Origin: Flavobacteriaceae bacterium
GTDB taxonomy: Bacteria; Bacteroidota; Bacteroidia; Flavobacteriales; Flavobacteriaceae
Direction: 5' to 3'
DNA length: 32,000 bases
Assembly (NCBI GenBank): GCA_965224465.1
Contig: OZ245049.1
Location: 3,990,001 to 4,022,000, forward strand
Within the stretch, counting starts at the first letter, position 1, and each line of letters starts with the position of its first letter. The translations under genes and the position numbers were made by a program. Under the pieces are notes generated by a model. The model had not been told where the DNA came from. It worked only from the letters and a program-made list of their open reading frames with translations, and ran no database searches. Positions 3,008-26,614 of this stretch are shown piece by piece.

Positions 3008-3032
3008 TTTTAGAGCGCCAATTTACTAAAAA

Positions 3033-3995
3033 TTATGCGTTTTGAGCTTTAAATTCTTTTAACTTTTCAATTAATTTAGGAACTACTTCAAATGCATCGC
3101 CCACAATTCCATAATCTGCTGCTTTAAAGAATGGTGCCTCAGGGTCTGTATTGATGACTACCTTTATCTTAGAAGCATTGATTCCTGCTAAATGTTGAAT
3201 GGCGCCAGAGATTCCGATGGCAATGTATAAATTGGAAGCCACGGGCTTTCCTGTTTGTCCTACATGTTCGCTATGTGGTCTCCACCCCAAATCCGAAACA
3301 GGTTTTGAGCAAGCGGTAGCTGCTCCCAATACTTCGGCTAATTCTTCGATCATTCCCCAGTTTTCAGGTCCTTTTAATCCACGACCTCCAGAAACAACAA
3401 TGTCTGCATCTCCAATGGTCACTTTTCCTGTTGTTTTTTCAACGGATGTAACGGATAAACTGTTACCTGTAACTGTAGGGTTGAAGTTTTCAACAACTCC
3501 AGATACTGCATTTTCTATAATTCCATAAGAATTCTTAGCCAAAGCGATTACTTTGGTATCTGTGGATATGTTGGTGTGATTGTATGCCTTGGTAGAGAAT
3601 GCATTTCGTTTTACGGTAAATCCATTGTCTAAATTTGGTAAGGAAACTACATTGGTCGTATATCCTGCATTTAAACCAACAGCGATCATAGGGCCCATGT
3701 ATAATCCGTTGTTTCCAGAATCTATAATTACAACAGTCGCATTTTCAGATTCGGCAGCTTGTTGGACTATAGATGCGTATGATTTGGCGTTGAAGTCTTT
3801 TAATGTATCGTTACTTACACAAAGCACCTTTTCTGCACCGTAATTGAATAATTGATCGTTATCTGCTGCGTTTATAGTTAAGGCAACGGTATTGGTGCCT
3901 AATAATTCTGCTATTTTTTTACCGTAACTGACAACTTCAAAAGCTGTTTTTTTAAATGTTCCTTCCGATGATTCGGCATATATTAATACTGACAT
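3033..3995 (-). CDS. etfA: Electron transfer flavoprotein, alpha subunit
   Basis: 320-aa ORF with the ETF-alpha FAD-binding C-terminal blocks (VVSGGRGLK, RPHSEHVGQTGK, LYIAIGISGAIQHLAG). It lies directly downstream of etfB. Confidence 0.9.
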   Translation of the reverse strand: MSVLIYAESSEGTFKKTAFEVVSYGKKIAELLGTNTVALTINAADNDQLFNYGAEKVLCVSNDTLKDFNAKSYASIVQQAAESENATVVIIDSGNNGLYMGPMIAVGLNAGYTTNVVSLPNLDNGFTVKRNAFSTKAYNHTNISTDTKVIALAKNSYGIIENAVSGVVENFNPTVTGNSLSVTSVEKTTGKVTIGDADIVVSGGRGLKGPENWGMIEELAEVLGAATACSKPVSDLGWRPHSEHVGQTGKPVASNLYIAIGISGAIQHLAGINASKIKVVINTDPEAPFFKAADYGIVGDAFEVVPKLIEKLKEFKAQNA

Positions 3996-4045: not shown

Positions 4046-4792
4046 TTAGATTACCTTCGCTTCGTTGTGTAATAATGATATTAATTCATCAATATTATCA
4101 GGGGCTACTAATTTTACAGCTCCTCTTACTGCTGGTTTTTCAAAAGAAATACTGGTTGTAGTGTTCGTGCTTTCTATTGGTTCTACTATAGTTAACGGTT
4201 TTTTACGTGCCATCATAATACCTCTCATATTAGGAATGCGTAGGTCTTTTTCTTCAACCAATCCTTTTTGTCCTGCAATTACTAATGGAAGTGCAGCTGT
4301 TATGATTTCTTTTCCTCCGTCTATTTCACGTTCTGCTGTGGCTGTATTTCCTTCGATTTCTAATCCGATACAAGCATTTACAAAATTATAATCTAATAGT
4401 GATGCCAACATTCCAGGAACCATTCCTCCGTTAAAATCAATGGATTCTTTTCCTGTCAATACAAGGTCAAATTCACCTGTTTTTACAACGTTTGCCAATT
4501 GTTTTGCAACTGAAAAACCGTCTGTTGCCTCTGTGTTTACACGGATAGCAGCATCAGCTCCTATTGCTAGCGCTTTGCGTAATGTTGGCTCTGTAGTGTT
4601 ATTCCCTACAGTGACTACAGTAACGGAAGCTCCTTGTTTCTCTTTGAGCCACATAGCGCGTGTCAATGCAAATTCGTCATATGGATTGATTACAAACTGA
4701 ACACCGTTGGTGTCAAACTGTGTATTTTCGTCTTTAAAATTTATTTTTGATGTCGTGTCAGGTACATGACTGATACATACTAATATCTTCAT
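4046..4792 (-). CDS. etfB: Electron transfer flavoprotein, beta subunit
   Basis: 248-aa ORF with a typical ETF-beta N-terminus (MKILVCISHVPDTTSKI) and the usual paired arrangement with etfA. Confidence 0.9.
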   Translation of the reverse strand: MKILVCISHVPDTTSKINFKDENTQFDTNGVQFVINPYDEFALTRAMWLKEKQGASVTVVTVGNNTTEPTLRKALAIGADAAIRVNTEATDGFSVAKQLANVVKTGEFDLVLTGKESIDFNGGMVPGMLASLLDYNFVNACIGLEIEGNTATAEREIDGGKEIITAALPLVIAGQKGLVEEKDLRIPNMRGIMMARKKPLTIVEPIESTNTTTSISFEKPAVRGAVKLVAPDNIDELISLLHNEAKVI

Positions 4793-4927
4793 TTGATGTG
4801 TTTTGAAAATTAGTTAATAGTTTTATTTCTTTTTACGGCTACGAAGTTAAACAAAAAATTTTATAATTACTATGCGTGCATAATAAAATAATTGTATGCA
4901 TTATAATTGTAATAATTAGGAATTGTG

Positions 4928-4935
4928 TATTTTTG
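4928..4935 (+). promoter_or_regulatory. Bacteroidota-type -7 promoter box (TAnnTTTG) for pdhB
   Basis: TATTTTTG lies 20 nt upstream of ATG 4955. Confidence 0.4.
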
Positions 4936-4954
4936 CAAATTCAAAACGAAATAT

Positions 4955-5935
4955 ATGAAGACTATTCAATTTAGAGAGGCTATATGTGAAGCCATGAGTG
5001 AAGAAATGCGTAAAGACGACAGCATTTTTTTAATTGGTGAAGAAGTTGCGGAGTATAACGGAGCTTATAAAGCTTCTAAAGGAATGCTAGATGAGTTTGG
5101 TAAACGTCGTGTGATTGATTCACCGATTGCTGAGCTTGGTTTTGCTGGTATTTCTGTTGGATCTGCAATGAACGGTACAAGACCGATTGTTGAGTTTATG
5201 ACTTTTAACTTTGCACTAGTTGGGATTGACCAAATTATAAATAATGCTGCTAAAATTAGACAAATGTCTGGTGGGCAGTTGAACTGTCCAATCGTTTTTC
5301 GTGGTCCTACAGGATCTGCGGGACAGTTAGGAGCTACGCATTCTCAGGCTTTTGAGAACTGGTTTGCAAATACCCCTGGTTTAAAGGTAATTGTACCTTC
5401 TAATCCTTATGATGCAAAAGGATTGTTAAAAGCTGCTATTAGAGATAATGATCCAGTTATCTTTATGGAGTCGGAACAAATGTATGGTGATAAAGGTGAA
5501 GTGCCAGAAGGTGATTATGTATTGCCAATTGGTAAAGCAGATGTTAAGAGAGTAGGAACAGATGTAACTATTGTTACCTTTGGGAAAATAATTAAAGAAG
5601 CTTTTAAAGCTGCAGATATTCTTGAAAAAGAAGGGATTTCTATTGAGATTATTGATTTAATGACAGTTCGTCCAATGGATCATGAAACTATTTTAGAATC
5701 AGTAAGAAAAACCAATAGATTGGTTATTTTAGAAGAAGCTTGGCCTTTTGCTAGTGTAGCTTCAGAAATTACGTATCAAGTTCAAGATAAAGCTTTTGAT
5801 CACTTAGATGCGCCTATTAAGAGAATTACTACTGCAGATACTCCTGCGCCGTACTCTCCAGGATTATTAGCAGAGTGGTTGCCAAATGCAAATGATGTTG
5901 TGAAGGCGGTAAAAGAGGCAATGTATATAAAATAA
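4955..5935 (+). CDS. pdhB: Pyruvate dehydrogenase (acetyl-transferring) E1 component, beta subunit
   Basis: Transketolase-like pyrimidine-binding plus C-terminal domain sequence (IGEEVAEYNGAYK, SPIAELGFAG, FMTFNF). The ORF track starts at GTG 4925, but that stretch overlaps a TAnnTTTG promoter box (4928-4935). ATG 4955 gives the typical N-terminus MKTIQFREA. Confidence 0.85.
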   Translation: MKTIQFREAICEAMSEEMRKDDSIFLIGEEVAEYNGAYKASKGMLDEFGKRRVIDSPIAELGFAGISVGSAMNGTRPIVEFMTFNFALVGIDQIINNAAKIRQMSGGQLNCPIVFRGPTGSAGQLGATHSQAFENWFANTPGLKVIVPSNPYDAKGLLKAAIRDNDPVIFMESEQMYGDKGEVPEGDYVLPIGKADVKRVGTDVTIVTFGKIIKEAFKAADILEKEGISIEIIDLMTVRPMDHETILESVRKTNRLVILEEAWPFASVASEITYQVQDKAFDHLDAPIKRITTADTPAPYSPGLLAEWLPNANDVVKAVKEAMYIK

Positions 5936-8556: not shown

Positions 8557-9096
8557 ATGACAAAAAAAATGAGTGCCACACCTAGAAGAACATTCGATGT
8601 TCTAATTGAAATTCCAAAAGGGAGTAGAAATAAATATGAATACGATTTTGTATTGCATAAAATTCGTTTTGATCGTATGTTATTTTCATCTATGATGTAC
8701 CCTGGAGATTATGGATTTATTCCTGAAACATTGGCATTGGACAAGGATCCTTTGGATGTATTGGTGTTAGGACATGAGCCTACATTTCCAATGTGTGTGA
8801 TGGAAGTAAAACCTATTGGAGTATTCCATATGGCTGATGAGAAAGGACCAGATGAGAAAATTATTTGTGTGCCTGTGTCTGACCCTATTTGGAATCGTTT
8901 AGATAATTTATCTGATATGAATCAGCATCAAGTAAAAGAGATAGAACACTTTTTTCAAGTTTATAAAGATTTAGAAGATAAAAAAGTAGCAGTAGGTGGA
9001 TGGGGTAATTCCGAGGAAGCCTATAATTTAATTGATGAATCAATTGCACGTTACGAAAAAAGTGAACATAAGAAAAATCGTAATTTCACGATTTAG
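8557..9096 (+). CDS. ppa: Inorganic pyrophosphatase, soluble family I
   Basis: 179-aa ORF with family I PPase blocks (EIPKGSRNKYEYD, YPGDYGFIPETL, DPLDVLVL, DEKIICVP). An alternative start at the second ATG (MSATP) is possible. Confidence 0.9.
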   Translation: MTKKMSATPRRTFDVLIEIPKGSRNKYEYDFVLHKIRFDRMLFSSMMYPGDYGFIPETLALDKDPLDVLVLGHEPTFPMCVMEVKPIGVFHMADEKGPDEKIICVPVSDPIWNRLDNLSDMNQHQVKEIEHFFQVYKDLEDKKVAVGGWGNSEEAYNLIDESIARYEKSEHKKNRNFTI

Positions 9097-9115
9097 AACT
9101 GTCATAAATACATAT

Positions 9116-9152
9116 AAAAAACCACCTTTATTTTTAAAAGGTGGTTTTTTTT
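9116..9152 (+). terminator. Intrinsic terminator after ppa
   Basis: AAAAACCACCTTT ... AAAGGTGGTTTTTTTT, a GC-containing stem with a long T-run. It separates ppa from hppA transcription. Confidence 0.75.
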
Positions 9153-9218
9153 GTTTTAAACTATTTTAGTACATTAGCAAGGAATCAAAGAAAAATTAAT
9201 TAAACTCAACAAAAAAAC

Positions 9219-21444: not shown

Positions 21445-21573
21445 AGTTTTTTAGAAGTGAGGAGAAATTTTAACTTAAACCAGTTATTTTATTTGTTGTC
21501 AGGTAAAATGATTGTTAGTCTTTTAAAAGCAAAAAAAAATGTAGGGAAACCTTGTTGATATGAGTAAATTTAT

Positions 21574-21627
21574 AAACGAAAAAAAGCCTGTAACACTTAT
21601 GTTTTACAGGCTTTTTTTTCGTTTATA
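21574..21627. terminator. Bidirectional intrinsic terminator between the OM barrel gene (+) and metK (-)
   Basis: Extended palindrome ATAAACGAAAAAAAGCCTGTAA...TTACAGGCTTTTTTTTCGTTTAT. Confidence 0.8.
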
Positions 21628-21637
21628 AGAATACTTT

Positions 21638-22891
21638 TTAAATTTTAAAAGCATCTTTTATTTTTGCAACATAGTCTAATTTTTCCCAGGTAAATGTTTC
21701 CACTTCTTTTTCGAAAACTTCTCCACTTCCAGAAACAAATTTCACTATTTTAATCTCTGGTGTACGTCCCATGTGTCCGTAAGCTGCTGTTTCGGAATAA
21801 ATAGGGTTTCTTAGTTTCAAGCGTTTTTCAATAGCTGCTGGTCGCATGTCAAACAATGTTTGAACAATCTTAGAAATTTGCCCGTCGTTTAAATTAATTT
21901 TGGAAGTACGGTAGGTATCTACGTTGATAGATGTTGGTTCAGCAACGCCAATAGCGTAAGAAACTTGTACTAAAATTTCATTACAAATTCCAGCGGCTAC
22001 CATGTTTTTAGCAATATGTCTCGCAGCATACGCAGCAGATCTGTCAACTTTACTAGGGTCTTTTCCAGAAAATGCTCCACCTCCGTGTGCTCCTTTACCA
22101 CCGTATGTGTCTACGATAATTTTACGACCTGTTAGTCCTGTATCTCCATGAGGGCCACCAATTACAAATTTCCCTGTTGGATTTACATGGTAGGTGATTT
22201 TATCATTGAATAATGCTTGTGTTTTTACGGGTAATTTTGCAATTACACGAGGCATTAAAACATTAATAACATCACTTTTAATTTTAGCTAACATGCTGTC
22301 GTCTTTATCAAAATCATCATGTTGGGTAGAAACTACGATGGTGTCAATACGTTGTGGAATGTTATCATCAGAATACTCAATAGTTACCTGACTTTTTGAG
22401 TCTGGGCGTAAATAAGTAATGTCCGAGTTTTCACGGCGCATCTCTGCCATTTCAATTAAAATCCGATGACTTAAATCCAATGCCAATGGCATGTAGTTTT
22501 CTGTTTCTTTGGTAGCGTACCCAAACATCATTCCTTGGTCTCCTGCACCCTGATCTTCTCCTTCTGCACGGTCTACTCCTTGGTTAATGTCTTGTGATTG
22601 CTCATGTATAGCAGAAAACACCCCACAAGAATTACCGTCAAAAAGGTATTCGCTTTTGGTATATCCAATTTTATTAATAGTATCTCGTGCTATTTTTTGC
22701 ACGTCTAAATAGGTTTTTGTTTTTACTTCACCAGCCAATACTACTTGTCCTGTGGTAACCATTGTTTCACAAGCTACTTTTGAGTTTTTGTCAAAGGCTA
22801 AAAAATGATCGACTAAGGCATCTGAAATTTGATCGGCTACTTTGTCTGGGTGTCCTTCCGAAACGGATTCAGAAGTAAATAAATATGACAT
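21638..22891 (-). CDS. metK: S-adenosylmethionine synthetase (methionine adenosyltransferase)
   Basis: 417-aa ORF with canonical MetK blocks ([45 protein letters not shown]). Confidence 0.95.
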
Positions 22892-22924: not shown

Positions 22925-23001
22925 AACTGATTGTACGGGAAAGGCTAAAGAAAGTAATTGATTACTGCTTTAGCATTTTTTTTATGAGGTTGCAATCAGT
23001 T
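22925..23001 (-). promoter_or_regulatory. Structured 5' leader of metK (nested helices), regulatory RNA class unassigned
   Basis: On the metK-sense strand, a 9-bp outer helix AACUGAUUG/CAAUCAGUU (23001-22993 with 22933-22925) encloses a 7-bp helix GCUAAAG/CUUUAGC (22974-22968 with 22950-22944). The structure lies between a TAnnTTTG box and the metK ATG. Confidence 0.3.
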
Positions 23002-23030
23002 CAAATTCTTCCTCTTTTTAATTTGAGATG

Positions 23031-23934: not shown

Positions 23935-24756
23935 ATGAAATCAATTAATATTTTAGTGATAGGTGCTGGAAATATGGGGCTTACCTTTGCAGAAGGGATG
24001 AGCAGGTCTAGTATTTTAAAAGGGAATAAAATAAATATTTACGATGTTTCTCATCAAAGAATTGCGGAAATTCAACAAATGGGACTCTTTAATGTTTGCT
24101 CTTCTTTAGACGTGTGTTTACCGCAAGCAGACATTGTTTTTTTAGCTGTAAAACCGTACAATATAGAGGAGCTATTTACAAGTATGAAACCGTTTACAAA
24201 TCCCGACCAAATTTTTGTTTCGATCATGGCTGGAGTCAAAATTAAAACGATTCAAGACAGCTTAGAAGTAGACAAAGTAATTAGAAGCATGCCTAATTTA
24301 CCAGCTAAAATTGGAGAAGGGATGACTAGTTTTACTATTTCTAAAACGGTGTCTAAATCAGAATCATTTTTAGTAAACGAATTAATGGAGACTACAGGAA
24401 TTACGGTGGAGGTTGCCAATGAAAAAATGATTGATGCATCTACCGGGATTTCGGGCAGTGGTCCTGCGTATGTTTTCTACTTTATGCAAGCGATTGTAGA
24501 GAAAAGTATAAATCTTGGGTTTACGGAAGAAGAAGCTAAAAGAATGACAATTCAAACGTTTAACGGTGCTGTTAAGCTCTACGAAAAGCACAAAGAAACG
24601 CCCAACGAGTGGATTGAGATGGTTGCTTCTAAAGGTGGAACCACAAGAGCGGCTATCGATATTTTAGACAAAGGACATGTAAAAGAGTCGATTATTCAAG
24701 CCGTAACAGGCGCCTTTGAAAGAGCCGTTGAATTAGGAGATATTGATGCGAAATAA
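23935..24756 (+). CDS. proC: Pyrroline-5-carboxylate reductase
   Basis: 273-aa ORF with the Rossmann motif VIGAGNMG and P5CR C-terminal blocks (GSGPAYVFYFMQA, SKGGTTRAAI). Confidence 0.85.
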   Translation: MKSINILVIGAGNMGLTFAEGMSRSSILKGNKINIYDVSHQRIAEIQQMGLFNVCSSLDVCLPQADIVFLAVKPYNIEELFTSMKPFTNPDQIFVSIMAGVKIKTIQDSLEVDKVIRSMPNLPAKIGEGMTSFTISKTVSKSESFLVNELMETTGITVEVANEKMIDASTGISGSGPAYVFYFMQAIVEKSINLGFTEEEAKRMTIQTFNGAVKLYEKHKETPNEWIEMVASKGGTTRAAIDILDKGHVKESIIQAVTGAFERAVELGDIDAK

Positions 24757-24788
24757 TCAATAAAAAAGATGTTTTATTTAAAAAATAG

Positions 24789-24818
24789 TTGGAGACTATA
24801 AAAATGTTTCTATATTTG
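24789..24818 (+). promoter_or_regulatory. Candidate promoter of the metY leader (-33 TTG, 19-nt spacer, -7 TATATTTG)
   Basis: TTG at 24789-24791 and TATATTTG at 24811-24818. This would place the transcription start about 10-15 nt before the leader ORF L1 ATG. Confidence 0.4.
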
Positions 24819-24838
24819 CCAATAGATAAGAAATAGAA

Positions 24839-24910
24839 ATGAATAAAAATTTAAACATAATGTGTCGCTGTATGATGTGTATTAATTACGCAGAGGACGC
24901 GAGTGTATAA
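24839..24910 (+). CDS. Candidate leader peptide L1 (23 aa, MNKNLNIMCRCMMCINYAEDASV)
   Basis: Hand-translated ATG..TAA mini-ORF. Six of seven consecutive codons (residues 8-14) are Met or Cys. It lies downstream of a TTG..TATATTTG promoter-like box, and an intrinsic terminator follows about 20 nt after its stop. Confidence 0.5.
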   Translation: MNKNLNIMCRCMMCINYAEDASV

Positions 24911-24927
24911 ATTTTAAAATATATATC

Positions 24928-24960
24928 AAGAGCCTCTGAGAAATCAGAGGCTTTTTTTTT
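24928..24960 (+). terminator. Intrinsic terminator T1 after leader ORF L1
   Basis: AGCCUCUGA / GAAA loop / UCAGAGGCU, extendable to about 12 bp, followed by a run of nine T. Confidence 0.75.
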
Positions 24961-24972
24961 ACAAGAAACACA

Positions 24973-25059
24973 ATGAATACTATTTTTAACTTTTTAATGA
25001 TGATAATGTGCCGCATGCGTATGCTGTGTTGTTGCATGATAAGATATTGCCAAATTTAG
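24973..25059 (+). CDS. Candidate leader peptide L2 (28 aa, MNTIFNFLMMIMCRMRMLCCCMIRYCQI)
   Basis: Hand-translated ATG..TAG mini-ORF. Eleven of eighteen codons (residues 9-26) are Met or Cys, and it shares the I-M-C-R core with L1. A second intrinsic terminator follows about 24 nt after its stop, immediately upstream of metY. Confidence 0.55.
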   Translation: MNTIFNFLMMIMCRMRMLCCCMIRYCQI

Positions 25060-25082
25060 TTTTTTTAAAGTATAAAATTTAG

Positions 25083-25122
25083 AAAGCCCCTTTGGTAATA
25101 TCAGTATTCAAAGGGGCTTTTT
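25083..25122 (+). terminator. Intrinsic terminator T2 after leader ORF L2, 29 nt before metY
   Basis: AAAGCCCCUUUG ... CAAAGGGGCUUU (12 bp) followed by UUUUU. The 14-nt loop can extend the stem (AAUA/UAUU). Confidence 0.7.
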
Positions 25123-25150
25123 CCATTTAGTTATACAAAAAATAGTACTT

Positions 25151-26440
25151 ATGAGCAATAAAAAATTTTCAACAACAGCATTACACGCAGGACACGATAC
25201 TTCAAAAACAGCAGGGACTAGAGCAGTGCCTATTTATCAAACTACCTCTTATGTTTTTAATGATACCCAGCATGCCGCCAACGTTTTTAGTTTGGCAGAA
25301 CCTGGCTTTATTTACACGAGATTAAACAATCCAACCAACGATATTTTAGAAAAACGTTTGGCAGCCTTGGATGGAGGGATTGGAGCAGCAGTATTTGCTT
25401 CTGGAACAGCCGCAATTTCATCGGCTTTATTAACTTTGTTAAGAGCAGGTGACCATATTGTTGCATCAAGTACTTTATACGGAGGGACCTTTAATTTATT
25501 GAATGTTACCTTACCAAGATTAGGGATTACTACTACTTTTGTAGATGCATCGGATCCTGAGAATTTTAAAAAAGCTATTCAAGACAATACCAGAGCAGTG
25601 TTTATTGAATCTATAGGGAATCCAAAATTAGATGTATTGGACATCGAAGCAATTGCGGATATTTCTAAAGCTAATAAAATTCCATTATTAGTGGACAATA
25701 CTGTGGCGACTCCTTATTTATTAAATCCTATAGAACACGGAGCTAATTTGGTTATTTATTCTTTGACTAAGTTTATTGGAGGACAAGGAAACTCTTTAGG
25801 AGGTGCTATTGTAGATGGAGGTAACTTTGACTGGACAAGTGGTAAATTTCCAGAGTTTACAGAGCCTTCTGCGGGATACCATGGGTTAATTTATAGCGAA
25901 GCTTTAGGCGATGCTGCTTTTATAGCCAAGGTACGATTGGAAGGATTGCGAGATTTTGGGGCAGCATTGAGCCCGTTCAATGCATTTCAAATTATTCAAG
26001 GCTTAGAAACCTTATCTATTAGAATGGATAAACACAGTAAAAATGCGTTGGAATTGGCGCATTGGTTAGAAGAGCAAGAAGAAGTGAATTGGGTAAGTTA
26101 CCCAGGATTAGAGAGTCATGCATCTTATGAAAACACAAAAAAATACTTACCAAAAGGTCAGAGTGGTGTCTTATCATTTGGTGTAAAAGGAGGCTTTGAA
26201 TCTGCAAAAATCACCGTGGATAATGTCAAAATATTTTCGTTATTGGCAAATATTGGAGATACAAAATCATTGATTATTCACCCTTCAAGTACTACACATC
26301 AACAATTAACGGATGCGCAACAAGAGAAATCTGGAGTCACAAAAGACCTGATTAGATTGTCGGTAGGAATTGAAGATATCAACGATTTAAAACAAGATTT
26401 AAAAGAGGCGTTTTCTAAAATAAAGGTGTCGGCACATTAA
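25151..26440 (+). CDS. metY: O-acetylhomoserine sulfhydrylase / aminocarboxypropyltransferase (Cys/Met-metabolism PLP family)
   Basis: 429-aa ORF with the length and sequence typical of MetY/MetZ-type enzymes (TRAVPIYQTTSY, NPTNDILEKRLAALDGG). The PLP-lysine context is YSLTKFIGGQG. Confidence 0.9.
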   Translation: MSNKKFSTTALHAGHDTSKTAGTRAVPIYQTTSYVFNDTQHAANVFSLAEPGFIYTRLNNPTNDILEKRLAALDGGIGAAVFASGTAAISSALLTLLRAGDHIVASSTLYGGTFNLLNVTLPRLGITTTFVDASDPENFKKAIQDNTRAVFIESIGNPKLDVLDIEAIADISKANKIPLLVDNTVATPYLLNPIEHGANLVIYSLTKFIGGQGNSLGGAIVDGGNFDWTSGKFPEFTEPSAGYHGLIYSEALGDAAFIAKVRLEGLRDFGAALSPFNAFQIIQGLETLSIRMDKHSKNALELAHWLEEQEEVNWVSYPGLESHASYENTKKYLPKGQSGVLSFGVKGGFESAKITVDNVKIFSLLANIGDTKSLIIHPSSTTHQQLTDAQQEKSGVTKDLIRLSVGIEDINDLKQDLKEAFSKIKVSAH

Positions 26441-26514: not shown

Positions 26515-26614
26515 TTGTTATTAAGAAAGGCAGAGGGATTAGACCCGCTGAAGCCTTAGCAACCCTTTAATTTTAAAGAAGGTGCTAAATTCTACCAAAT
26601 CGGATAGATAACAA
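26515..26614 (+). promoter_or_regulatory. SAM-I (S-box) riboswitch aptamer upstream of metX-thrA-metB/Z-like operon
   Basis: The sequence matches the SAM-I consensus core almost block for block: UUAUUAAGAAAGGCAGAGGGAUUAGACCCGCUGAAGCCUUAGCAACCC..(P3 hairpin)..AAGGUGCUAAAUUCUACC..GGAUAGAUAACAA. P1 can form between 26515-26522 and 26607-26614. It lies 88 nt upstream of a methionine-biosynthesis operon. Confidence 0.85.

Follow-up and report, generated by a model that had tools for sequence, protein, structure and literature searches.

The 24789-25150 interval is very probably a metY leader that carries two ribosome-mediated transcription attenuators in series, with an intrinsic terminator between each of two short, Met/Cys-codon-rich open reading frames and metY (T1 after L1, T2 after L2). 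This reading is based on the anatomy of the leader, its conservation and covariation, alternative folds in silico, and its exclusivity with SAM riboswitches; from these we infer that L1 and L2 are translated, that ribosomes stall on them, that transcripts have 3′ ends at the terminators, and that expression responds to Met and Cys. The relevant features of the window, i.e., the whole 32-kb stretch of DNA that was analyzed, are as follows.

21638-22891, minus strand: metK, downstream of a SAM-II riboswitch
22960-23020, minus strand: SAM-II (long-loop) riboswitch, upstream of metK (RF01726, 70.4 bits)
23935-24756: proC, flanking the metY leader upstream
24789-25150, plus strand: metY leader, read from the sequence as promoter, L1, T1, L2, T2, and then metY
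24789-24818, plus strand: candidate Bacteroidota-type promoter, with TTG at 24789-24791, a 19-nt spacer, and the TAnnTTTG box TATATTTG at 24811-24818
24839-24910, plus strand: leader ORF L1, 23 codons, MNKNLNIMCRCMMCINYAEDASV and stop; regulatory Met/Cys codons 8-14 (24860-24880)
24876-24892, plus strand: unit 1 hairpin 1:2 (anti-antiterminator), UG.UGU of codons 13-14 with ACGCA
24890-24896, plus strand: unit 1 region 2, GCAGAGG, antiterminator 5′ strand, partner 24933-24939 in the T1 5′ arm
24928-24960, plus strand: intrinsic terminator T1, 12 pairs; 5′ arm 24928-24939, loop GAAA, 3′ arm 24944-24955, U-run to 24960
24973-25059, plus strand: leader ORF L2, 28 codons, MNTIFNFLMMIMCRMRMLCCCMIRYCQI and stop; Met/Cys codons 9-22 (24997-25038) plus Cys26
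25043-25054, plus strand: unit 2 region 2, GAUAUUGCCAAA, antiterminator 5′ strand, within the last 5 codons of L2
25083-25122, plus strand: intrinsic terminator T2, 13-15 bp stem, 12-nt loop, U-run
25091-25102, plus strand: unit 2 region 3, UUUGGUAAUAUC, top of the T2 5′ arm plus loop
25151-26440, plus strand: metY, O-acetylhomoserine sulfhydrylase/homocysteine synthase family (TIGR01326, E = 1.3e-195)
26515-26614, plus strand: SAM-I riboswitch heading the next unit after metY (RF00162, 80.4 bits)

Gene and Rfam matches bore out the setting described in an earlier note on this DNA, with proC before metY and a SAM-I-headed operon after it, the latter containing metX, aspartokinase/homoserine dehydrogenase, and a metZ-like gene. 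The box TATATTTG matches what we take to be the Bacteroides/Flavobacterium promoter consensus, which would imply a transcript start near 24825, ∼14 nt 5′ of the L1 AUG; all homologous loci have a TAnnTTTG-like box ∼20 nt 5′ of the L1 start codon.

The coordinates and translations first given for L1 and L2 agree with the sequence, as do the Met/Cys counts: residues 8-14 of L1 include 3 Met and 3 Cys (6/7 residues), and residues 9-26 of L2 include 6 Met and 5 Cys (11/18). To place these values, ATG-ORFs of 15-45 aa on both strands were screened for at least six Met/Cys in any 8-residue stretch. Only L1 and L2 reached this threshold among the 192 ORFs of the window, the next best having four, and every such ORF among 3106 in 66 related loci sits upstream of metY. 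The earlier impression that the two units, with their common I-M-C-R core, look like a duplication found little backing; that string is not retained even in the closest relatives. What L1 and L2 have in common extends over just 27 nt of AUG/UGU codons in the Met/Cys runs (local score 26 versus 17.7 ± 2.5 for shuffles), and unit 2 earns no more than 21-36 bits from the unit 1 covariance model. The idea that L2 is a recent copy of L1 was rejected as unsupported, and units 1 and 2 (U1 and U2) are two distinct unit types, each conserved separately. A division of labor, with one unit for Met and the other for Cys, was also rejected because both units mix the two codons and because both are Met-only in one related locus (L003) and nearly Met-only in another (L058). 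Small ORFs of the form MMPxCMxCC.. were seen ∼600 nt 3′ of metY, along with antisense ORFs across the metY start; all are most likely conserved genes read in another frame.

The hairpins at 24928-24960 and 25083-25122 were confirmed as strong predicted intrinsic terminators. T1 was paired in 96.9% of alignment cells, with compensatory changes in three pairs, whereas T2 was missed by the consensus terminator scanner because its loop is longer than the 8 nt that the scanner allows. The leader as a whole folded more stably than shuffled sequences (z = -5.5; 0/100 shuffles as good).

Both proposed antiterminator pairings were found to exist. In unit 1, CAGAGG (24891-24896) pairs with CCUCUG (24933-24938), and the 2:3 helix was paired in 83% of cells, versus 22-44% with the partner slid. 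This helix is nearly invariant and thus covaries little, but compensated variants occur in L024 (GCAGCG:CGCUGC) and L058 (UGACG:CGUCA) and covary with both terminator arms. The unit 1 antiterminator is short (6-7 bp) and, at ∼-12 kcal/mol versus -22 for the competing terminator fold, the less stable of the two; it must therefore win kinetically. In unit 1, hairpin 1:2 ties up the 5′-most bases of region 2; it was recovered in the RNAalifold consensus (alignment A1), where one pair had five double-sided changes, and also when the free RNA was folded to minimum energy. In unit 2, GAUAUUGCCAAA (25043-25054) pairs with UUUGGUAAUAUC (25091-25102) over 12 bp including one G:U, and a helix of 10-12 bp with the T2 5′ arm and loop was present in 14/14 sequences, with compensatory changes; the cognate duplex had an energy of -16.0 kcal/mol, versus -7.5 ± 2.5 for shuffles. 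In the MAFFT alignment of unit 2 (A2) the terminator loops are placed wrongly, and pairs were counted in an anchor-based register instead; since the proposed helix was used to fit this register, the permuted-partner control alone is informative, with 154/196 cells paired versus 143 ± 3 for permuted partners (6/2000). In unit 2, the 1:2 pairing was seen at the level of single-sequence folds.

When a ribosome mask was placed on the Met/Cys codons, folding yielded the antiterminator in 14/14 unit 1 and 14/14 unit 2 sequences, whereas a mask at the stop codon yielded the terminator; when the antiterminator was forced, the terminator was absent. Together with the comparative data, these masked folds support the trp/his-type attenuation geometry that had been suggested for the leader. 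A reservation raised with it, namely that antiterminator and terminator overlap only in part, is also resolved: in both units the antiterminator encloses the rest of the terminator 5′ arm, and only a pseudoknot could accommodate both helices at once.

The order promoter-L1-T1-L2-T2-metY recurred in at least 17 other Bacteroidota loci among the matches listed, either as two-unit leaders upstream of metY (L001-L003, L023, L024, L027-L029, L037, L045, L058, L084, L089, and L094) or in a reduced form in the same place (L032, L033, and L096). These loci span at least four MetY clades, including Flavobacteriaceae genera, Flavobacterium, and one Lentimicrobiaceae (Bacteroidales) MAG, and a metagenome scan contributed at least four of them (L084, L089, L094, and L096) among the matches listed. 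Orthologs of L1 were found in 13 further loci and those of L2 likewise in 13, among the loci listed. Alignment upstream of metY orthologs, the check that the earlier note had proposed, revealed that the start codon, reading frame, Met/Cys enrichment, terminators, and both antiterminators were kept in several genera, whereas the spacers, the ORF tails, and the order of residues drifted. Where the stop codon falls with respect to region 2 was likewise conserved. UGU and UGC were exchanged synonymously among the leader ORFs, and the L2 core reads ..LMMIMCRMRMLCCCM.., ..FIMMRCMRMMCCCM.., or ..FMMMCCMRMMCCYM.. in loci with 92-94% MetY identity. Both units recurred across genera despite differing upstream genes. 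Several unit 1 copies have few Met/Cys codons but keep the RNA switch (L032, L033, L096, L045:4600-4730, and Flavobacterium psychrophilum); additionally, T2 is lost in L023 and L094 has unit 2 only. In 0.65 Mb scanned, the unit 1 covariance model exceeded 40 bits only beside met genes, and its strong matches included no second copy of unit 1 in the 32-kb window. A weak match lies at window positions 21508-21619 (E = 0.09), and others at 9039-9153 and in L048 were, on inspection, ordinary gene-end terminators.

In most relatives, the regulatory slot taken up here by the leader belongs to a SAM-I riboswitch. Among loci without leader ORFs, 55 have a SAM-I riboswitch 110-430 nt before metY (110-330 nt except in L065) and two have a SAM-II riboswitch in the same slot, while in the remainder metY lies directly behind another gene; the metY slot of leader-type loci contained no riboswitch in any of them. 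Since the leader recurs where other relatives carry a SAM riboswitch, it is most likely a two-stage Met/Cys switch operated by ribosome stalling. At gathering thresholds no Rfam family matched within 24700-25250, SAM classes and T-box included. At E ≤ 10, the best sub-threshold matches were Phe_leader at 23-29 bits (28.8; gathering 55) and Bacteroid-trp RF01692 at 22.4 bits (gathering 49); these leader-family matches span the terminator hairpins, and the other matches were to unrelated RNAs.

An element in the SAM-I slot could instead be a switch that binds a ligand or protein (e.g., a new SAM/Met-responsive riboswitch or a regulator site), the frames being incidental. Such a switch would suit the unit 1 copies that persist with few Met/Cys codons, as well as the Flavobacterium-type unit 2, in which two more conserved hairpins would give a three-way junction in the antiterminated state. 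We nevertheless consider it very unlikely, because conservation is highest at the codon level (AUG, open frame, and Met/Cys content with shuffled order), stop codon placement is conserved with respect to region 2, the alignments contain no aptamer-like conserved unpaired core, and no Rfam riboswitch family matches the leader.

In F. psychrophilum, an independent transcript of ∼100 nt, Rfp20, is catalogued as a small transcript (PMC9723704 supplement) and maps onto the unit 1 homolog, 270-370 nt upstream of metY. This entry would fit terminated leader transcripts that serve as trans-acting small RNAs. Attenuated leaders acting in trans are known in other systems, and here such action could be an added role rather than an alternative; as the explanation of the element it is improbable, the strict position before metY being accounted for by action in cis. 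The same short transcript, and the conservation and Cys/Met-richness of the ORFs, might also be expected if L1 and L2 were genes for functional small peptides (metal-binding, redox, or precursor) with their own terminators. However, residue order and ORF tails vary even in close relatives, the conserved C-terminal codons coincide with RNA pairing segments, the ORFs always lie between promoter and metY and are never accompanied there by a SAM riboswitch, and no maturation or export genes adjoin them, making peptide genes very unlikely. Chance ORFs in an A+T-rich spacer followed by ordinary terminators (e.g., of proC) are scarcely credible: the genome has 34% G+C, small ORFs are frequent (192 in the window), and no terminator was found in the proC-L1 interval when one was looked for, but the Met/Cys enrichment is unique in the window and among the 3106 background ORFs, and the recurrence of the same two units across genera behind different upstream genes already contradicts this reading.

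Under ribosome-mediated attenuation, each unit would comprise region 1 (the Met/Cys codon run), region 2 (late in the mini-ORF), and regions 3 and 4 (the terminator arms). With Met-tRNA and Cys-tRNA well charged, the ribosome would reach the stop codon and cover region 2, the terminator would form, and the transcript would end at ∼24960 or ∼25122. With low charging, the ribosome would halt on the Met/Cys codons, melting the 1:2 hairpin and exposing region 2, which would pair with region 3 once made; the terminator would be excluded, and the polymerase would continue into metY. Untranslated RNA would adopt the 1:2 plus terminator fold and hence terminate too. Met would be the core signal, given the Met-only runs in some relatives, and Cys a frequent second input. 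The two serial units would multiply their read-through probabilities, for low basal expression and a steep response. Met starvation should also lower initiation on the leader ORFs, which would favor termination. Translation in the host phylum initiates without Shine-Dalgarno pairing, and we know of no demonstration of transcription-translation coupling in Flavobacteriia.

The E. coli leaders trpL, hisL, leuL, thrL, pheL, and ilvL are alike in having a short ORF rich in end-product codons and share the scheme of a 1:2 hairpin, a 2:3 antiterminator, and a 3:4 intrinsic terminator read by ribosome position. The metY leader differs in its signal, Met plus Cys, in its two complete units in series, in a region 2 that lies within the ORF, immediately 5′ of the stop codon instead of 3′, in the absence of sequence similarity, and in a host without Shine-Dalgarno-led initiation. 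Within the phylum, leader-peptide attenuation is represented by Bacteroid-trp RF01692 and by the leader peptides reported for F. psychrophilum ilvE and hisG (PMC9723704 supplement). These have the Bacteroidota promoter and an A-rich start context in common with the metY leader, but involve another amino acid and another controlled gene, and at 22.4 of 49 bits the window is not a member of RF01692.

The earlier note knew of no described Met/Cys leader-peptide attenuator in Bacteroidota, and for this phylum the openly accessible literature yielded no description; elsewhere, Met leaders have been predicted and tandem attenuators are known. A Met leader peptide, MetL, is predicted before metBA of Campylobacter jejuni (PMC3847290), and metL before metNIQ of Streptomyces lividans is predicted to encode ..CMCRRMC.., mixing Met with Cys (PMC8079986). 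Like the metY leader, both are short Met-codon ORFs on a short RNA before methionine genes with proposed stalling; however, they belong to other phyla, consist of single units with three Met codons or of a leaderless ORF lacking an evident terminator, and are reported without conservation or covariation analysis. The resemblance, drawn from the S. lividans peptide and the description of MetL, is functional. Cys codon runs control sulfur amino-acid genes by attenuation in mycobacterial polycysteine sORFs (bioRxiv 10.1101/834739) and in leader ORFs of Actinobacteria (PMC1262725), and a Cys-codon upstream ORF, uORFC-8-2, acts by attenuation at Rhodobacterales cysS (PMC8632094); in contrast to the metY leader, these use Cys only and occur in other phyla before other genes. 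Two switches in series in one leader are also found in tandem riboswitches or T-boxes and in the Salmonella mgtCBR leader, a virulence/Mg2+ operon in which the tandem ORFs mgtM and mgtP read ATP and proline (PMC3641672), whereas the metY units carry the same kind of codon, with a separate canonical intrinsic terminator for each. The SAM-I riboswitch before metY in most Flavobacteriaceae shares the position, gene, and output (premature termination) of the leader, but senses SAM directly via its aptamer, while the leader is predicted to sense tRNA charging via translation.

It is conceivable, though we lean against it, that Met/Cys leaders are a sensor class for sulfur amino acids that is widespread yet has gone all but undescribed, and that they and SAM riboswitches have repeatedly replaced each other before metY; comparable ORFs rich in Met/Cys were found upstream of metY in two Gemmatimonadota-like loci (L076 and L128). 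If so, the paired units of Bacteroidota would act as a device with two stages and two inputs, Met and Cys charging, with metY answering amino-acid charging and the neighboring met genes answering SAM. Methionine genes are classically controlled by a SAM riboswitch, a T-box, or a repressor. Met leader-peptide control is rare, having been suggested only from transcript maps in two other phyla, and here a conserved Bacteroidota family would replace SAM-I at one gene while SAM-I and SAM-II stay on neighboring units, so that one locus would read both tRNA charging and SAM. The leader would thereby offer a natural system for asking why Met/Cys charging, rather than SAM, is sensed at the sulfide-fixing step, and would show how attenuation at Met codons is reconciled with the Met requirement of initiation itself. 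It would also let the contribution of two serial attenuators be measured and transcription-translation coupling be tested in a phylum without Shine-Dalgarno initiation. For annotation, it would provide a new RNA/ORF family and account for the unassigned Rfp20 transcript of a fish pathogen. A tiny MMCMCSC ORF was also observed in L111, after a SAM-box-like sequence recognized by eye.

The leader between proC and metY (TIGR01326 O-acetylhomoserine sulfhydrylase) contains two Met/Cys-codon-rich ORFs, L1 and L2, each followed by an intrinsic terminator, T1 and T2. Translation, a terminator scan, folding, and gene searches bore out this arrangement and the flanking genes as described in an earlier note. 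The features of the leader and its neighborhood are:

22960-23020, minus strand: SAM-II long-loop riboswitch of metK, upstream of the leader on the opposite strand
24811-24818, plus strand: promoter box TATATTTG, preceded by TTG and 19 nt, ∼20 nt ahead of L1, read from sequence
24839-24910, plus strand: L1, peptide MNKNLNIMCRCMMCINYAEDASV
24928-24955, plus strand: T1 stem, U-run to 24960, from a consensus terminator scan
24973-25059, plus strand: L2, peptide MNTIFNFLMMIMCRMRMLCCCMIRYCQI
25083-25122, plus strand: T2, 13-15 bp stem with a 12-nt loop, present in every fold
26515-26614, plus strand: SAM-I riboswitch after metY, followed by metX, aspartokinase/homoserine dehydrogenase, and a metZ-like gene

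The TTG and the 24811-24818 box fit the consensus of a Bacteroidota-type promoter. The leader RNA folds far more stably than its shuffles (z = -5.5). Opposite-strand ORFs of 51 aa (24882-25037, minus) and 20 aa (24796-24858, minus) overlap it, with no sign of conservation seen. Within 4 kb, each of three neighboring methionine units carries a different type of regulatory RNA: SAM-II on metK, the Met/Cys leader on metY, and SAM-I on metX and onward.

To assess conservation, 160 metY loci from genomes and metagenomes, among the matches listed, were compared. The full order of promoter box, Met/Cys ORF, terminator, Met/Cys ORF, terminator, and metY recurs in two NORP Flavobacteriaceae MAGs (L001, L002; MetY 92-94% identical), Namhaeicola litoreus (L003), Urechidicola vernalis (L023), loci L024 and L089, a Flavobacterium clade (L027-L029, L037, L045, L084, L094), and a Lentimicrobiaceae (Bacteroidales) MAG (L058). 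In a neighbor-joining tree, leader-bearing loci fall into at least four MetY clades, interspersed with others. Relatives encode L1-type peptides such as MKFNVCNMCCMMMWRNPAETTIV, MKKSLNNMYMMMHFKRSRG, and MKLTAVNMMSMMMQERS and L2-type peptides such as MKSSNINKMMMCCMMCCCAPNHHYQKRKS and MKKLNLNSSMMQKMMSQNMIRYCQH; in the L2 of the closest relatives, the Met/Cys count stays at 11-12 while residue order is shuffled, and Cys codons alternate between UGU and UGC, as predicted if selection acts on codon content and not on the peptide. The enrichment is also rare: of the 192 ATG-ORFs of 15-45 aa found on either strand of the window, L1 and L2 are alone in reaching six or more Met/Cys per eight residues (next best, four), and when 3106 ORFs of this kind from 66 related loci were compared, every one at that level lay upstream of metY. 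Many SAM-I-type loci have recurrent Met/Cys small ORFs downstream of metY (MMPxCMxCC.., ∼4850-5000, plus strand) and antisense over its start (3016-3123, minus strand), which probably reflect other frames of conserved coding sequence rather than leaders.

Both units contain a conserved candidate antiterminator. In unit 1 (L1 and T1), GCAGAGG (24890-24896) repeats the T1 3′ arm and can pair with CCUCUG(C) of the 5′ arm; 83% of cells are paired, vs. 22-44% with the partner slid. The T1 stem covaries, and the antiterminator changes along with it (GCAGCG:CGCUGC in L024; UGACG:CGUCA in L058; GUGGG:CCCAC in L032, read by eye from the sequence). A small hairpin also pairs the last Met/Cys codons with ACGCA of the antiterminator 5′ strand (region 2), one pair having five double-sided changes. 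In unit 2 (L2 and T2), the last L2 codons (GAUAUUGCCAAA) can pair with the terminator loop and the upper part of the T2 5′ arm. This helix measures 10-12 bp in 14 of 14 sequences, and several of its positions carry compensatory changes; pairing is found in 154 of 196 cells vs. 143 ± 3 with permuted partners (6/2000), and the cognate duplex has -16.0 kcal/mol vs. -7.5 ± 2.5 for shuffles. This pairing accounts for the conserved look of the peptide tail (..RYCQ.., ..HYQK..) and terminator loop. The Flavobacterium type (L027-L029, L037, L045, L084, L094) has two further conserved hairpins between region 2 and T2. The L2 stop codon lies in the loop of the first (L027, L028, L037) or just upstream of that hairpin (L029, L045), and the second, UAUAG..CUAUA, stands immediately before T2; the pair may act as pause signals or form two arms of a three-way junction when the leader adopts its read-through fold.

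Folding under simulated ribosome occupancy agreed with the proposed switch. A stalled ribosome was mimicked by a mask that began at the start codon and ended 12 nt beyond a middle Met/Cys codon, with RNA supplied as far as the terminator loop; the minimum-energy fold was then the antiterminator in 14/14 unit 1 and 14/14 unit 2 sequences. When the mask also covered the stop codon, the terminator alone formed. In free RNA, the Met/Cys codons pair with region 2 and the terminator also forms. The earlier concern that the pairings overlap the terminator stems only partly is answered by forcing the antiterminator, which leaves no terminator: it encloses the remaining 5′ arm, making the helices incompatible except as a pseudoknot. 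Because the terminator is favored at equilibrium (-22 vs. -12 kcal/mol, unit 1; -21 vs. -17, unit 2), the choice must be kinetic, as is common to classical attenuators.

A duplication origin of the units, suggested in the earlier note, fared less well. Their similarity in the window is confined to 27 nt of Met/Cys codons, and the unit 1 covariance model scores unit 2 at only 21-36 bits, which indicates two distinct, separately conserved unit types; a duplication, if any, would be ancient. Over 0.65 Mb, this model recovered its training sequences. It also found homologs in L032, L096, L033 (a second copy), and L045 (a further copy, 4600-4730), all poor in Met/Cys codons, whereas the window yielded no additional copy.

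The strongest argument that the leader regulates metY is its alternation with riboswitches in the same slot. Rfam scans of 80 Bacteroidota loci placed SAM-I before metY in 55, at 110-430 nt (110-330 nt except L065), and SAM-II there in two, and found no riboswitch in front of metY in any leader-type locus; in L064, metK-metY lies under SAM-II. In loci with neither element, metY directly follows another gene. Ten leader-type loci have SAM-I downstream of metY, ∼80-140 nt away in the window, L001, L003, and L023 and 0.45-2.3 kb away in the Flavobacterium clade; the scans found none there in L002, L024, L058, L084, and L094. In SAM-I-type relatives, metY is not followed by another SAM-I, and the operon thus appears split in leader-type lineages. 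In several Flavobacterium-type loci, Flavo-1 RNA (RF01705) matches adjoin SAM-I, at L028:6777-6855, L029:6723-6802, L037:6799-6896, and L046:2477-2638 (minus).

The comparative evidence supports the attenuator interpretation: the metY leader is most likely a tandem ribosome-mediated attenuator, which would read charging of Met (usually also Cys) tRNA. Judged by sequence comparison, it is a conserved, uncatalogued Bacteroidota family alternating with the SAM-I riboswitch. Although this class of mechanism is a familiar one, the signal, the tandem form, and the phylum are new; no Met/Cys attenuator in Bacteroidota was found described in the literature searched. The F. psychrophilum transcriptome (PMC9723704) includes Rfp20, listed as an independent transcript of ∼100 nt, which maps 270-370 nt upstream of metY and whose sequence is a unit 1 homolog (MKITICNICRMASENSAEY.., with UUCCGCAGAG). 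Leader peptides of ilvE and hisG and a Bacteroid-trp leader are reported in the same species (PMC9723704), so leader-peptide attenuation is accepted in Bacteroidota. Elsewhere, two reports give Met leader peptides predicted from transcript maps, C. jejuni MetL before metBA (PMC3847290) and S. lividans metL (..CMCRRMC..) before metNIQ (PMC8079986); Actinobacteria and Rhodobacterales have known Cys leader ORFs (PMC1262725; bioRxiv 10.1101/834739; PMC8632094), and Salmonella mgtCBR has tandem leader-ORF attenuators (PMC3641672).

Several leaders depart from this plan. Both units generally mix Met and Cys, and those of L003 and L058 are essentially Met-only, pointing to Met as the core signal. In L023 (2890-3000), unit 2 is reduced to MKIMIMLGYCHN and a stop, and T2 is lost (without 3′ arm and U-run), with pairing segments GGUAUUGCCAC / GUGGUAAUACC retained; it looks like a decayed second stage. 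L094 has unit 2 alone. Unit 1 has just 2-4 Met/Cys codons in L032, L033, L096, and F. psychrophilum; known attenuators can work with a few regulatory codons, but this scarcity makes the Met/Cys run less secure as a defining feature. Homologs of both units in L032:2587-2900, L033:2569-2910, and L096:828-1140 keep terminators and a covarying antiterminator (GUGGG:CCCAC), with 3-4 Met/Cys codons in unit 1 (for example, MNFNVCNISKSMQEKSCGSFIA), and may be weakened or re-tuned attenuators; L033 has an additional intact unit 1 (2089-2208), then MKTIGNKMMMMYF... In the Flavobacterium hydrocarbonoxydans locus (L045), a ∼91-nt tandem repeat interrupts the stretch between the units (2285-2500), and the 4600-4730 element, a third, unit-1-like one (MMQIQLNVNKMCYAISDKTVGSFIA, stop, terminator), lies downstream of metY, ahead of a SAM-I riboswitch. 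In L111:360-690, a SAM-I-like box with terminator precedes a tiny ORF, ATGATGTGCATGTGTAGTTGCTGA (MMCMCSC, stop), ∼90 nt before metY, and may combine riboswitch and Met/Cys mini-ORF in a single leader. In two high-GC loci (L076:2670-3000, L128:730-1060), one of them a Gemmatimonadales MAG, metY is preceded by a conserved Met/Cys-rich ORF, ending ..MSCRRAMCCRMIPCSPRLGWTASSARARGSGGA and ..RPMCCRMMLCLPRLGWTASSAHARGSGGL before the stop and followed in each case by a strong GC hairpin; this arrangement may represent a comparable attenuator in a different phylum.
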